DNA of 32,814 nucleotides from an uncultured Campylobacteraceae bacterium. GTDB taxonomy: Bacteria; Campylobacterota; Campylobacteria; Campylobacterales; Arcobacteraceae. Shown here one piece after another: positions 8,812-26,649 of the stretch; position 1 is the first letter of the stretch, and each line of letters starts with the position of its first letter. The stretch covers positions 1 to 32,814 of the forward strand of contig CAKZOX010000153.1 in the NCBI GenBank assembly GCA_937138295.1, in the 5' to 3' direction. The translations under genes and the position numbers were made by a program. The notes beneath the pieces were generated by a model. It did no database searches, had not been told where the DNA came from, and saw nothing but the letters and a program-made list of their open reading frames with translations.

Positions 8812-9549
8812 ATGAACTACGAAGTGGTTACTACCCAAGATGGGTCTAATACCTTATACTCAAAACAATACAACCAGCATTATCATAATATAGATGACGG
8901 AGCTGTAAATGAGTCATTGCATAAGCATGTTATTCCATGTATAAGCTTTCATAAAAATGAAAAAAGCCTAAATATTTTAGATATATGTTTTGGAATTGGC
9001 TATAACAGTTTATCAACAATATATTATGTTAAAAAAAACAACTTAGATATAAAATTAAATATTTATTCACCTGAATTAGATGAATCACTTATAAATTCTC
9101 TAAAAGATTTTAATTATCCAAAAGAGTTTGACTTTTTAAAAGAGATTATAAATGAACTAAGCACTAATTATTTTTATGAAGATGAAAATCTAAAAATAGA
9201 AATAGGTATAGGTGATGCAAGAAAATATATAAAAAAATTTAATAAAGATTTTTTTAACATAGTTTATCAAGATGCATTTTCAAGTGATGTAAATAAAGAA
9301 TTGTGGACAAAAGAGTATTTTGATGATATTTTTAAAATATCTAATAAAAATGTAATCATGTCTACATACTCAATAGCAACTCCGGTTAGATTATCTATCT
9401 ATAAAGCTGGATTTGAAATATATCAATATATACCTGTAAAAAGAAAATTAAGTCTGTGTTTTAAAGAAAAACAAGATTTCATTGGAAAATATATTGATAT
9501 GGAATTAAAACAACAAAGAAACAAAGAAGCTAAACCAATCTATGACTAA
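8812..9549 (+). CDS. MnmC2/MnmD-like tRNA (mnm5s2U34) methyltransferase-domain protein (DUF752/Methyltransf_30), standalone.
   Basis: By eye, the blocks LDICFGIGYNSL and YQDAFSSDVNKELWTKEYFDDI...KAGFEI align with the E. coli MnmC N-terminal domain (D-[GA]-F-[AS]-P..N.E.W...F). Confidence 0.5.
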   Translation: MNYEVVTTQDGSNTLYSKQYNQHYHNIDDGAVNESLHKHVIPCISFHKNEKSLNILDICFGIGYNSLSTIYYVKKNNLDIKLNIYSPELDESLINSLKDFNYPKEFDFLKEIINELSTNYFYEDENLKIEIGIGDARKYIKKFNKDFFNIVYQDAFSSDVNKELWTKEYFDDIFKISNKNVIMSTYSIATPVRLSIYKAGFEIYQYIPVKRKLSLCFKEKQDFIGKYIDMELKQQRNKEAKPIYD

Positions 9550-10369
9550 AACAACAATTCCCATACAAGAAATAAATTACACTTCATATATAAAAGGTAA
9601 TTTACCAATAATACTTTCAGCGCCCCATGGTGGAGATATTAATGCCCCTGAAATTAAAACAAGAACATCTGGTATATTTGATAAGGATGACTTTACAAAA
9701 GAGCTAACATTAGATATTGTAAATGAATTTCATAAACAAACTAATAAGTATCCATATGCTGTAATAATGAATTTATCAAGAAAGAAAATTGATGCAAACA
9801 GAGATATTTTTGAAGCTATTGAAATGGATGATAAAAATGCATTAAATGCTTATAATAGTTTTCATAAAGCTATAAATAATAGTTTTGATGAAGTAAAATC
9901 TACTTTTAAATATGGTTTGTATTTTGATATACACGGCCAATCCCACTCTCATAATTGTTTAGAGTTAGGGTATTTACTTACAAATGACAAATTAAAACTT
10001 GAAGATAAAGAATTAAAAAATTACAAAGAAGACTCATCTTTAAATAGTTTGAGTTCTATTTCTAATAAAGATTTTTTAGATTTACTTAAAGGTGAAAATT
10101 CATTTGGAACTATTCTTTGTAAAAACGCACAAGACTCTATTCCATCAAGTAAAATTCACTATGCAAATGATGATAAAGAATATTTTGAAGGTGCTTTTAA
10201 TACTCAAAGTTATTCACAAATTGGTAGTCCTATGATAACAGCTATTCAATGTGAGTTTCCATATAAAAGTAGAAGCACTAAAGAAAACAGATTAAATTGT
10301 GCTAAAGCCTTTGTAAACTCTGTTATAGAGTACTATAAAATTCACTTTGATATTGATTTAAAAGCTTAG
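9542..10369 (+). CDS. N-formylglutamate amidohydrolase (FGase, PF05013)-family protein, putative.
   Basis: ILSAPHGG, DANRD and FDIHGQS blocks are spaced as in the FGase family. The ATG overlaps the upstream stop (ATGACTAA). Confidence 0.4.
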   Translation: MTKTTIPIQEINYTSYIKGNLPIILSAPHGGDINAPEIKTRTSGIFDKDDFTKELTLDIVNEFHKQTNKYPYAVIMNLSRKKIDANRDIFEAIEMDDKNALNAYNSFHKAINNSFDEVKSTFKYGLYFDIHGQSHSHNCLELGYLLTNDKLKLEDKELKNYKEDSSLNSLSSISNKDFLDLLKGENSFGTILCKNAQDSIPSSKIHYANDDKEYFEGAFNTQSYSQIGSPMITAIQCEFPYKSRSTKENRLNCAKAFVNSVIEYYKIHFDIDLKA

Positions 10370-10388
10370 ATTTAATACTTTCTAAGCT
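10363..10388. terminator. Hairpin spanning the 3' ends of the convergent FGase-like gene and pglB.
   Basis: AGCTTAGA (10363-70), 10-nt loop, TCTAAGCT (10381-88). The two stop codons are 2 nt apart. Confidence 0.3.
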
Positions 10389-12519
10389 TATAGATTTTTG
10401 ACATAGGATCTAAAAAAACAGGTGTGAATAAATCTTTGTCATAATCTTCAAAAACAAATAGTTTTATAAAAACTGAATCTATAAGTTTATTATCTATTAC
10501 TAAGTACATATTATACTCTTCAAGGAAAATGATATTTACTTTTCCATTTTTATTCAATGTTTTTCTTGAGATTTGTAAGTTTTTATTTTCATCATATTTT
10601 GTAGTTATAAATTCATTTATTGTATGAATTCCACTAGACATAAATACTTTATTATTGTGTAAGTCTATACTTACTCTATTATCAAGTATGATTTTCTTGT
10701 CTTTTTTATCATATGATTTTGAATTATAGTAAACTATTTTTTCAAGTTTTTTTCCAGTCATTAAATCCATATTTGAAAACTCAATTATTCTTGAAAACAT
10801 AGTTAAAACTTTTGCTGGTAAAAATAGATAAATATCTTCATTAAAAGGTTCTGTTTTAATATTTTGGATATTTTCTAAAAATAAATTAGTATCTTTAAAT
10901 CCATTATCAACAGTCATTTGCTCTATAAATGATTTCACATCTTTTGGTGGCTTATCTAACTCTTTATTTTCTATTCTTTTTTTATCATATGATATGGTTA
11001 AATTAGCCATTTTAACAGCTTCATCTTGGGAAGTTGTAGTAAAAATAAAACTTGTAGGAAAATTATCACTTCCTCTATGAAGTCCACCATCAATTAAAGT
11101 ATTGGTTTCAGTGTAATATCTTATTAAATATCCATAACTCCACCATCCTATTGTATAGTCATTTATATTTGAAATTTTATTTAACTCATCAAGGGATTGC
11201 ACAACTTGTTTTGGGACAGTTGGATAGGCAAAGTATTTATTTATATGAATTAAATTTGGTAATAAAACTAAAAATGTAAGTATTATTAGTAAATAGTTTT
11301 TAACTATTTTTGAAAGTTTACCCTCAAACTTTTTAGCTAAAAAAACTGAAACTAAATAAATAAGATATGAAACTGATAAAGCCATAATTGGAACTGCATA
11401 AATAGTAAATCTTAAGCCTGCAAATAAAGACAAAAACCCAAGTGCTAACATTGGCAAAGTAATGATTAAAATTCTGTATTTAAACAACAATAAAACATAT
11501 CCAAGTAAAGCAAACATAAAAGCAATTAAACTTCCACTTGTTCTAATAGCCATAGTTTCAAAATTAATCGCTTGAACTTCAGGAATTGTATTCATTACAG
11601 CATAAAAATGTAAACCTAAACCTTCATATTGAACAATATCTCTAATTAAATAGTTTTTCAACTGCCCAATAATAGGATTTAATCCTCCAGATATTATAAA
11701 TAAAGCAATTGAAATAAAAACTATATATTTTAGATTTTTATAAAAAAAAGATTTTTTATAAAACAATAATAAAAAAAGTATTGATACTATTATCACCCTA
11801 TAAATTGAGTCTAACATCATCATTGATAAAAGCATAAAAGAAAGTAAGGTTAAATTATATTTATACTCTTTTGTTTTTAAAAATTCTATAAATGCTATTA
11901 ATACAATAATAGAAAAAAATGCAAACTCTAAAGCATAACTTTGTGGATACCAATATCTATATAATATAATTTCAATAGCTGTAAAAACTATATATTTATT
12001 CTCTTTTGTTTGTATTGCTGAATACAAAGACCATATCATAAACATAGGGAAAACTATATTTAGAAAATCTGTATCAAAATATCCCGCCATTGTTCGATTA
12101 TAGTAACTATTAGCAATACTTGCTATAAGTGCAGCCATAAATCCTACACTTAGATTATTTAGTTTTTTTCCTAAAAGTATTAAGGGGATTACAATAAGTG
12201 AAGAAAAGAATATAGGCATATATACAAATAAACTTTCCATTGAAATAGGAGTTATTTTATAAAATAAATAGGCTAAATTAGCCATAGCTGAGCGAATAGG
12301 CGAACGTTCACTAATAAGATTTTCATCACCTATTATTAAATCTTTAGCGCCCTCAGCCCAATAAAAAGCATCATTGGTTGTAAGTATGTATTCGTTATTG
12401 AATTTGTAGTGTTCTATGTTGTTATTATCAACTATCCAGTAAAGTCTTGCTACAAAACTAAAAGTAAAAGCTAATAAAATTAATAAAAGTATTTTTATGT
12501 TTTCATTTTTAGTTAGCAT
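10372..12519 (-). CDS. pglB: STT3/PglB-family oligosaccharyltransferase homologue. It is an orphan with no pgl genes nearby and has variant acceptor-site motifs.
   Basis: 715 aa with about 13 N-terminal TM helices and a periplasmic C-domain. It aligns along its length with C. jejuni/C. lari PglB as recalled: NDAFYWAEGAKD vs NDGYAFAEGARD; ASIANSYYNRTMAGYFDTD vs ASIANSYYNRTMSGYYDTD; GLRFTIYAVP; GWWSYGY vs TWWDYGY; DGGLHRGSDNF vs DGGKHLGKDNF. Confidence 0.85.
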   Translation of the reverse strand: MLTKNENIKILLLILLAFTFSFVARLYWIVDNNNIEHYKFNNEYILTTNDAFYWAEGAKDLIIGDENLISERSPIRSAMANLAYLFYKITPISMESLFVYMPIFFSSLIVIPLILLGKKLNNLSVGFMAALIASIANSYYNRTMAGYFDTDFLNIVFPMFMIWSLYSAIQTKENKYIVFTAIEIILYRYWYPQSYALEFAFFSIIVLIAFIEFLKTKEYKYNLTLLSFMLLSMMMLDSIYRVIIVSILFLLLFYKKSFFYKNLKYIVFISIALFIISGGLNPIIGQLKNYLIRDIVQYEGLGLHFYAVMNTIPEVQAINFETMAIRTSGSLIAFMFALLGYVLLLFKYRILIITLPMLALGFLSLFAGLRFTIYAVPIMALSVSYLIYLVSVFLAKKFEGKLSKIVKNYLLIILTFLVLLPNLIHINKYFAYPTVPKQVVQSLDELNKISNINDYTIGWWSYGYLIRYYTETNTLIDGGLHRGSDNFPTSFIFTTTSQDEAVKMANLTISYDKKRIENKELDKPPKDVKSFIEQMTVDNGFKDTNLFLENIQNIKTEPFNEDIYLFLPAKVLTMFSRIIEFSNMDLMTGKKLEKIVYYNSKSYDKKDKKIILDNRVSIDLHNNKVFMSSGIHTINEFITTKYDENKNLQISRKTLNKNGKVNIIFLEEYNMYLVIDNKLIDSVFIKLFVFEDYDKDLFTPVFLDPMSKIYKLRKY

Positions 12520-12527
12520 GTTTGATT

Positions 12528-13082
12528 CTAGTGAAAAAATAGATGTTCAATTAAAATTTTGACACCAATTAAGATAAGAACAACTCCACCTAGTTTTTCT
12601 GCTTTATCTTCTAAATATGTTCCGCCTTTAGTTCCAATAAATACACCTATAAATGAAAAAATCAAAGTAATTATACCAATAATTATCATTGATAAAAATG
12701 GATTTACTTGCATTAATCCTAAAGTAAATCCAGCAGCCATAGCATCTATACTTGTTGCAATTGCTAACATTAATAATACTCTATTTGTAACTAGATTTAT
12801 CTCTTCTTCAGTACCTTCTTGGAAACTTTCATAAAGCATTTTACTACCAATTAATGTTAATAAAATAAAAGCAATCCAATGATCAATTGTTTGAATATAA
12901 GTGTCTAAGCCTAAACTTGCAAGATAACCAAATAATGGCATTAGTCCTTGAAATAGACCAAAAAAAAGTGCTACTTTAAGAGCAAAGACAAAATCAAACT
13001 TTTTTGCTTTTACTCCAAGTCCAATTGAAACAGCAAAAGCATCCATAGCTAAGGCAAAAGATAAGATTAAAACTTCAATCAT
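12528..13082 (-). CDS. mntP: Manganese efflux pump MntP (DUF204).
   Basis: 184 aa. Two repeated halves each carry the AMDAFAVS / SIDAMAAG motifs characteristic of MntP. Confidence 0.8.
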   Translation of the reverse strand: MIEVLILSFALAMDAFAVSIGLGVKAKKFDFVFALKVALFFGLFQGLMPLFGYLASLGLDTYIQTIDHWIAFILLTLIGSKMLYESFQEGTEEEINLVTNRVLLMLAIATSIDAMAAGFTLGLMQVNPFLSMIIIGIITLIFSFIGVFIGTKGGTYLEDKAEKLGGVVLILIGVKILIEHLFFH

Positions 13083-13091
13083 TACAAAACT

Positions 13092-13586
13092 CTAATCTGC
13101 TAACTTATCTAGTATGTATCTTTCTAAATCTTTTTTTGTAATTTCATCTTTTAAAGATTGTTCAAAAATTTCTTCAATTTTTGATGAGTATTCATCATAT
13201 GGGAAAAAAGGAAAATGTATAGACCAAGATTTTTTAATAACATCCTTTGAAATTGTTGCTATTAGCCAATCTTTAAAGTAATTAAATCCTATAAATATAG
13301 CTGCAGTTATAACAACTGCACCTATAATTGAAATATGTGAGTCTATTTTTGCCAACTCTTTATGAGTTAAAAAAGAAAGGGGCACTAAAATTCCAAGTAC
13401 TATTGATGTATAAAGTATGTATGCCTTAGTAAGACTTAGTTTAAAACCTAATCTTGAAGCATCAACATCCATTCTTTCATTAAATTGTCTATTAGCTACT
13501 AATAGGTCTTTTAATAAAACTGGTTGTTTAGATGTAATAAATACATAACTTAATATTTTTTGCTTAAGTGTCTTTTCTTTTGGCAT
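13092..13586 (-). CDS. Hypothetical small membrane protein.
   Basis: 164 aa with two central hydrophobic segments (ILYTSIVLGILVPLSF, IIGAVVITAAIFIGF). It is wedged 24 nt after metH and 9 nt before mntP. Confidence 0.35.
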   Translation of the reverse strand: MPKEKTLKQKILSYVFITSKQPVLLKDLLVANRQFNERMDVDASRLGFKLSLTKAYILYTSIVLGILVPLSFLTHKELAKIDSHISIIGAVVITAAIFIGFNYFKDWLIATISKDVIKKSWSIHFPFFPYDEYSSKIEEIFEQSLKDEITKKDLERYILDKLAD

Positions 13587-17087: not shown

Positions 17088-17164
17088 AATCTCTCTGTTT
17101 ATAGTTTATTATTATTAGATATTCTATTTAAAATGTAGTTAAAATCTAGTTAATGAATAAGTAG

Positions 17165-25139: not shown

Positions 25140-26498
<1,359 letters not shown>

Positions 26499-26649
26499 CT
26501 ATAATTTAAAAAATATTAAATAAATTGTTTTGATTATATCAAAAAATATTTATATCTGCTTAATTTATTTACTTATTTTAAATTATTAATCTTGTAAGTT
26601 TCATTTTGATATGATTTGACATAAATAACAAATCTAACATGTAGAATAT

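Follow-up and report, generated by a model that had tools for sequence, protein, structure and literature searches.

The locus and its pglB-like gene

The DNA considered here is a contig of 32,814 nucleotides (CAKZOX010000153.1 of assembly GCA_937138295.1) from an uncultured marine member of the Campylobacteraceae (Arcobacteraceae in GTDB), the whole of which is referred to below as the window. One strand carries a run of four genes separated by gaps of 8-24 bp, consisting of metH, a gene for a 164-amino-acid protein of unknown function, mntP and, in last position, a pglB-like gene for a putative undecaprenyl-pyrophosphate (Und-PP)-oligosaccharide transferase of the STT3 family, which is the subject of this report. 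An earlier reading of the window from its letters alone (the original prediction) had described the gene as lacking a pgl locus on either side, and this is borne out, as mntP and metH lie upstream and the whole 32.8 kb is devoid of pgl-type genes, i.e., of genes for a glycosyltransferase, a sugar-modifying enzyme, a flippase or an initiating transferase. The N-X-S/T rule for glycosylation sequons, and the WWD motif of oligosaccharyltransferases (OSTs) by which it is enforced, are regarded as holding throughout all three domains of life. As judged from alignments, two sequon-holding elements of the pglB-like protein, the Asp of WWD and the residue x of the TIxE motif, are replaced as in no homologue outside its own clade, among those examined. 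A natural enzyme under selection with that Asp replaced and a Pro in the TIxE strand would offer a direct handle on the part of sequon recognition that is dispensable. The positions of the gene, its motifs and its upstream neighbours are collected in Table 1.

Table 1. Positions, in the window, of the pglB-like gene, of the motifs of its product and of two neighbouring genes
Feature	Position	Strand	Remarks
pglB-like gene, 715 amino acids	10372..12519	(-)	STT3-family Und-PP-oligosaccharide transferase (putative); full-length 13-transmembrane-type fold plus periplasmic domain
TNDAF	12364..12378	(-)	D50 = C. lari D56, first DXD, metal and acceptor carboxamide; Asp kept
NRTMAGYFDTD	12067..12099	(-)	R142, D149 and D151 = C. 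lari R147, D154 and D156, second DXD; all kept
EL5 micro-mosaic patch, residues 285-292	11646..11665	(-)	around Y290 (C. lari Y293); two alleles
TIPE (TIxE)	11578..11589	(-)	catalytic Glu E314 = C. lari E319, kept; x (C. lari M318) is Pro, P313
R326	11542..11544	(-)	C. lari R331, salt bridge to -2 Asp/Glu; kept
GLRFTIY	11398..11418	(-)	R370 = C. lari R375, pyrophosphate binding; kept
WWSYGYL	11125..11145	(-)	in place of WWDYGYP; S461 at plus 11137-11139; Y464 (C. lari Y468) kept; P469L
DGGLHRG	11071..11091	(-)	glycan-binding loop; D, G, G, H and G kept; Lys replaced by Leu
VLTM	10798..10809	(-)	at MxxI (MI) motif, M569xxI572; conservative, in this species only
mntP	12528..13082	(-)	Mn efflux; 8 bp upstream of the pglB-like gene
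Gene for 164-amino-acid protein	13092..13586	(-)	no family match; first after metH in the run

Protein family, fold and conserved core

The 715-amino-acid protein has three Pfam matches above cut-off, namely PF02516 (STT3 N-terminal membrane domain, 1e-31), PF21436 (STT3-PglB_core, 2e-34) and PF18527 (STT3_PglB_C, the C-terminal beta-barrel, 2e-8), and it aligns over its full length with Campylobacter lari PglB (5OGL, 6GXC and 3RCE) at E ~1e-126. STT3-family domains were the only ones found by Pfam, without any Wzy_C / O-antigen ligase domain, as in the PglL/PilO-type O-oligosaccharyltransferases. An AlphaFold2 model built from 73 homologues (mean predicted local distance difference test score, 89.3; predicted template-modelling score, 0.85) has 5OGL as its best Foldseek match (template-modelling [TM] score, 0.90; E, 2e-48). 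Its architecture, predicted fold and catalytic residues place the protein in the STT3/PglB superfamily. The NCBIfam PglB equivalog NF050801 gives it 502 bits, below the cut-off of 1300; however, canonical PglBs from outside Campylobacter also remain under that cut-off, at 585-627 bits, and the criterion is therefore specific to Campylobacter.

Residues are numbered below after C. lari PglB, with a numbering rebuilt from the alignment, and the window coordinates of the motifs were confirmed by translation. Two sets of relatives were compared. The first (close homologues) contains the 120 best homologues, which are 118 canonical relatives with WWD and two proteins with WWS, and the second (representatives) contains the best 150 of 1629 relatives, down to 26 % identity and clustered at 50 % identity, from a HMMER search that covered 1.84 billion cluster representatives exhaustively. 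One of the two WWS proteins, P0001, comes from a JGI metagenome and the same species as the window, is 98 % identical to the window's protein and reads WWSYG and DGGL, while the other, P0002, comes from a Logan assembly, is 68 % identical (and is called the 68 % relative below) and reads WWSFG and DGGL. Together, the three proteins make up the WWS clade.

Within the predicted active site, all of the residues for metal binding and catalysis (D56, R147, D154, D156 and E319) are kept, and they are likewise all present in the 68 % relative. Also kept are R375 and Y196 for pyrophosphate binding, Y293 of external loop 5 (EL5), Y468 for the reducing-end sugar's N-acetyl group, and D481, both Gly, H485 and G487 of the glycan loop; the two neighbours of D56 carry clade-specific changes, G57A and Y58F. 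Thus, the original prediction of a PglB homologue with an intact catalytic core is upheld by the three STT3 domains, the alignment and the presence of every residue that it listed. On the acceptor side, all three members of the clade retain W463, W464 and R331, the residue that pairs with Asp/Glu at -2 in the bacterial sequon, and I572 is kept in the 68 % relative. As aligned, then, the half of the active site that serves the donor and catalysis is intact, two contacts that hold the sequon are replaced, and the remaining peptide contacts are kept. Among the 61 columns that are conserved at >=80 % across 129 full-length representatives, the protein departs from the consensus at seven, the family mean being 6.2, and D465, the Asp of WWD, is its sole departure at a column conserved at 99 %; apart from that, its family core is normal by this comparison.

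In the EL5 region, the window differs from L001, a locus from a strain with 98.9 % identical flanks, at 10 nucleotides within 20 bp, as against ~1 % divergence elsewhere. Two alleles were seen there, GQLKNYLI in the window and in L014, and GKLELYLF in L001 and in the locus of the 68 % relative (L002). This mosaic suggests recombination or gene conversion in the part of EL5 that binds lipid-linked oligosaccharide (LLO).

Changes in the acceptor site

The WWD motif (residues 463-465) is WWS in the pglB-like protein, the Ser being encoded by AGT on the minus strand (ACT at 11137-11139 of the plus strand), two base changes away from GAT. Asp occupies this column in 118 of the 118 canonical close homologues and in 146 of the 147 representatives that cover it, i.e., in 264 of 265 other homologues when both sets are taken together, and Ser at this column is confined to the WWS clade. 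The sole other representative without the Asp, P0263 (738 amino acids), has a degenerate SWGHGS at this point and a degenerate DGGK loop as well. Because the Asp is nearly invariant in homologues and the Ser is common to the 68 % relative, the replacement is not a chance event. Within the searchable library of papers, a text search that included the strings WWSYG and WWSFG returned nothing on a WWS-type OST.

The backbone N-H and the hydroxyl of the +2 residue both donate hydrogen bonds to D465 of C. lari PglB, and the bonds made by D465, by the N-H of M318 and by W463 have been described as the three that are essential for tight peptide binding (PMC8479172). The WWDYG motif has been called strictly conserved in OSTs, a criterion from which the pglB-like protein departs, and in Campylobacter jejuni PglB, the D459V variant (three independent clones) and the D459N-S492C variant were expressed yet inactive, which argues that the position matters (PMC3527161).

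The second replacement lies in TIxE, the T, I and E of which are present in the protein and the x of which is Pro. Pro at that position occurs in the three WWS proteins only, with no instance among the other 118 close homologues and the 150 representatives. The backbone N-H of M318 in C. lari PglB bonds to the carbonyl of the sequon's +1 residue (PMC8479172), and a rigid antiparallel main-chain frame is built by the sequon together with TIXE, in AglB as well as in PglB (PMC8342417); a Pro at x would remove the N-H that makes this bond.

The two other motifs that had been singled out as altered are less unusual. The loop DGGK, which reads DGGL, is assigned to glycan/LLO binding rather than to peptide binding (PMC3527161, PMC8342417), and its Lys is present in only 79 of 145 representatives; 8 % of the canonical close relatives (10 of 118) lack it too, among them P0003, the nearest sister, which has DGGL itself. 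At MxxI, the 68 % relative has MLTI, and L, I, M and V all occur naturally at the M569 and I572 columns of the representative alignment. The original prediction had read the WWS codon, DGGL and VLTM correctly, and the loss of MxxI that it reported holds for this species; however, the 68 % relative retains the motif, and V and M fall within natural variation. Of its three altered motifs, the Asp-to-Ser change is, in these alignments, the only exceptional one. The statement that every acceptor-peptide-binding motif is altered went too far, given that DGGK is assigned to glycan binding and has a variable Lys and that R331, W463 and W464 are kept; the broader claim of an altered acceptor site gains from the TIxE Pro, which had been overlooked, and now concerns one Asp and one Pro rather than all of the motifs.

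Selection, phylogeny and rarity of the WWS clade

Comparison of the pglB-like gene with that of the 68 % relative gives a ratio of non-synonymous to synonymous substitution rates (dN/dS) of 0.20 at a dS of ~1.1, and across residues 440-500, the span that includes WWS and DGGL, the ratio is 0.11. The open reading frame (ORF) is intact in all of the full-length assembled copies examined, which come from several samples and contain no frameshifts or stops. Purifying selection, the intact family core and the intact copies indicate a functional, non-decaying protein. The dN/dS of 0.20 together with the intact ORF in every full-length copy examined rules out a pseudogene.

A neighbour-joining (NJ) tree built from 141 PglB homologues places the WWS clade inside the main group of canonical sequences, with P0119 and P0003 as its sisters. 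Its stem has a length of 0.39, and its root-to-tip distances are 0.73-0.81, compared to 0.33-0.44 for the sister sequences. These data fit a lineage that split from canonical WWD PglBs, went through a burst of change on its stem and was then held under constraint. The clade consists of the species of the window plus one 68 % relative; in a collection of 15 billion proteins, it is represented by cluster 7 (four near-identical sequences) and P0002 only. When 241 million JGI metagenome records were searched for WW[non-D][Y/F]GYxIRYY with a degenerate DNA pattern, the sole returns were the 98 % contig already known and two matches outside ORFs that are put down to chance. Scans of a collection of species-representative genomes with the protein and with the three-member clade alignment yielded no relative, and the peptide patterns used are narrow and thus weak evidence of absence.

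Comparison with known systems

When compared to the PglBs of C. lari and C. jejuni (3RCE, 5OGL, 6GXC; EC 2.4.99.19), the pglB-like protein has the same three-domain architecture and fold (TM score, 0.90), ~34 % identity over its full length, and identical catalytic, pyrophosphate-binding and N-acetyl-binding residues, as well as R331 and both Trp of WWD. It differs from them in WWS, the Pro at TIxE-x, DGGL, VxxM and the change of P469 to Leu, and in its location outside a pgl locus. Its identity to the canonical PglBs of the uncultured Campylobacterota (P0003, P0119 and P0005) is higher, at 43-48 %, the WWS clade nests among them, and P0003 shares its DGGL; however, all three keep WWDYGYP, have Arg, Lys or Ser at TIxE-x, and sit on branches that are about half as long.

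The original prediction had also likened the protein to the PglB2 of Helicobacter. Helicobacter pullorum PglB2 is, similarly, a Campylobacterota STT3 homologue of questioned N-OST function outside a classical single pgl locus; however, it keeps WWD and all of the listed essential residues, and it has 23 % identity to H. pullorum PglB1 and 19 % similarity to C. jejuni PglB (PMC6025236, PMC11164674). Whereas PglB2 is an old, deeply divergent paralogue, the pglB-like protein nests in the canonical clade, lacks the WWD Asp and stands close to the canonical PglBs from which it derives, its sequon site being specifically changed, so that the analogy fails. The WWDYG mutants of C. jejuni PglB (W458A-D459A, D459V and D459N-S492C) are a parallel in that the same residue is hit, although they are laboratory loss-of-function variants (PMC3527161), whereas the substitution seen here is natural, leads to Ser, is joined by a second change in TIxE and stands under purifying selection.

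Interpretation and alternatives

The explanation that is favoured, albeit tentatively, is that the pglB-like protein is an active Und-PP-glycan transferase whose recognition of the acceptor at +1 and +2 has been re-tuned or relaxed, and which probably still acts on protein Asn with an acidic residue at -2. By analogy with PglB, the enzyme would bind an Und-PP-linked glycan and a divalent cation, and en bloc transfer of the glycan would take place in the periplasm. The retention of R331 and of both Trp makes a protein Asn with an acidic residue before it, at -2, the most probable acceptor, whereas the +1/+2 positions would be read in a manner unlike that of the canonical Ser/Thr clamp. A bolder form of this proposal, which is on the unlikely side, is that the protein represents the first natural STT3-family OST without both the WWD Asp and the TIxE main-chain clamp, glycosylating Asn or another nucleophile without the +2 Ser/Thr rule. 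Such a naturally evolved single-subunit OST might, for instance, tolerate other residues at +2 or Pro at +1. Bacterial glycoengineering is limited by the sequon requirement and would profit from the enzyme, should it prove active under another acceptor rule. For the specialist, the WWS enzyme is moderately surprising, and how significant it is will turn on experiments and on the remainder of the genome.

Several points weigh against a re-tuned transferase. The clade comprises just two independent lineages, so that conservation within it is statistically weak, and the NJ tree may suffer from long-branch distortion. No glycan-assembly genes are linked to the gene within the contig, and a donor glycan is assumed. 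For no OST was a D-to-S test at the WWD Asp found in the literature. Additionally, Ser can both donate and accept hydrogen bonds, and the canonical N-X-S/T sequon may therefore still be recognised, with lower affinity.

The last point leads to the alternative of an ordinary N-X-S/T OST, in which Ser461 would be an adequate substitute for the Asp, perhaps via a water molecule, and the protein would be a normal and possibly the only PglB of its host, with its donor glycan made by pgl or lipooligosaccharide genes elsewhere. This alternative, which is judged improbable, draws on the fact that no catalytic or donor-site residue is lost and that R331 and the two Trp remain, on the intact family-wide core and on the hydrogen-bonding chemistry of Ser. 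The orphan location does not speak against it and is not diagnostic, because canonical WWD relatives are also found outside pgl clusters; P0006 (locus L008) lies between rpsU and asnB, ~4 kb from metH, and P0003 (L003) and P0119 (L012) are likewise outside such clusters, all three proteins being from uncultured Campylobacterota. On the other hand, the Asp is kept in 264 of the 265 other homologues, and C. jejuni PglB with Val or Asn at D459 is inactive (PMC3527161). Furthermore, the unique TIxE Pro, combined with the accelerated stem, points to a functional shift and not to neutral drift.

A dedicated LLO hydrolase, which is likewise given a low probability, would have a weakened peptide clamp, would use water as the acceptor and would release free oligosaccharides into the periplasm, e.g., as osmoprotectants in a saline habitat. 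An intact donor and catalytic side with two peptide contacts lost is what such an enzyme would display. PglB-dependent, osmolarity-responsive release of free oligosaccharides by C. jejuni was reportedly described by Nothaft et al. in 2009, and that release is said to be lost in a WWDYG mutant. PglB, yeast OST and AglB all hydrolyse LLO when no acceptor is provided (PMC6215017, PMC8342417); however, hydrolysis by PglB in vitro was not reproduced in PMC6215017, and a hydrolase leaves the retention of the peptide-binding R331, W463 and W464 unexplained. Proof of hydrolase function would make the protein the first STT3 dedicated to releasing free oligosaccharides.

The least probable of the alternatives, and a doubtful one, is a non-catalytic or diverged second copy beside a canonical PglB in the same genome, which would have lost OST activity or acquired a non-Asn or non-protein acceptor. 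Consistent with it are the loss of the Asp from a motif called strictly conserved in OSTs (PMC3527161), a PglB-model score that is 100-170 bits under those of canonical relatives, the long stem branch and the precedent of H. pullorum PglB2, which had no detectable activity (PMC6025236). Such a pairing is also possible in principle, since a canonical PglB with a full pgl cluster is known from a probable Arcobacteraceae genome. That protein, P0005, is encoded inside a complete pgl-type cluster in a genome of 3.5 Mb and 28.6 % GC, the NDK of which clusters with an Arcobacteraceae metagenome-assembled genome; the genome is thus probably of that family, and canonical pgl systems probably exist in the Arcobacteraceae. 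Nevertheless, coexistence with a canonical copy is an assumption, and such a second copy is at odds with a dN/dS of 0.20 that is lower still around the altered motifs, with the retention of all catalytic residues over a dS > 1 and with the full-length assembled copies examined, which are free of frameshifts and stops.

Neighbouring genes and other features of the window

The adjacency of mntP and the pglB-like gene is common to the 68 % relative (P0002) and several other samples. However, in the strain represented by L001, mntP is absent from precisely this site and an 18-bp spacer stands in its stead. A functional coupling to mntP, e.g., for Mn2+ supply, is therefore not obligatory, and an obligatory adjacency can be ruled out. 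The mntP segment (window 12524-13092) is a presence/absence polymorphism; in three ENA assemblies it forms separate contigs of 883-910 bp, and a contig of 33,185 bp in ERZ27257073 ends, by coordinate arithmetic, exactly at window position 13092.

GC content varies between 24 and 34 % along the window, and ThiC, LuxS and other proteins encoded there share 90 % clusters with proteins of Malaciobacter, Halarcobacter and Poseidonibacter, which marks the contig as part of a metagenome-assembled genome from the Arcobacteraceae. Scans for promoters and terminators gave no signal above shuffled controls, a tRNA scan of the window found nothing, and Rfam over the window had no family at gathering score, including upstream of thiC and of the B12-dependent metH (26490-26649 and 17088-17164). 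A thiamine pyrophosphate riboswitch is common upstream of thiC. Among the canonical relatives, the gene for P0119 overlaps a gene for a 639-amino-acid protein of unknown function and precedes a phospholipase A1 gene. On the other side of the pglB-like gene, a 275-amino-acid protein is encoded convergently (window 9542-10369, plus strand), with the two stop codons 2 bp apart. It belongs to no Pfam family, has a sub-threshold match to N-formylglutamate amidohydrolase (E, 0.006) and is conserved in L001 and L014, where it occupies the same position.

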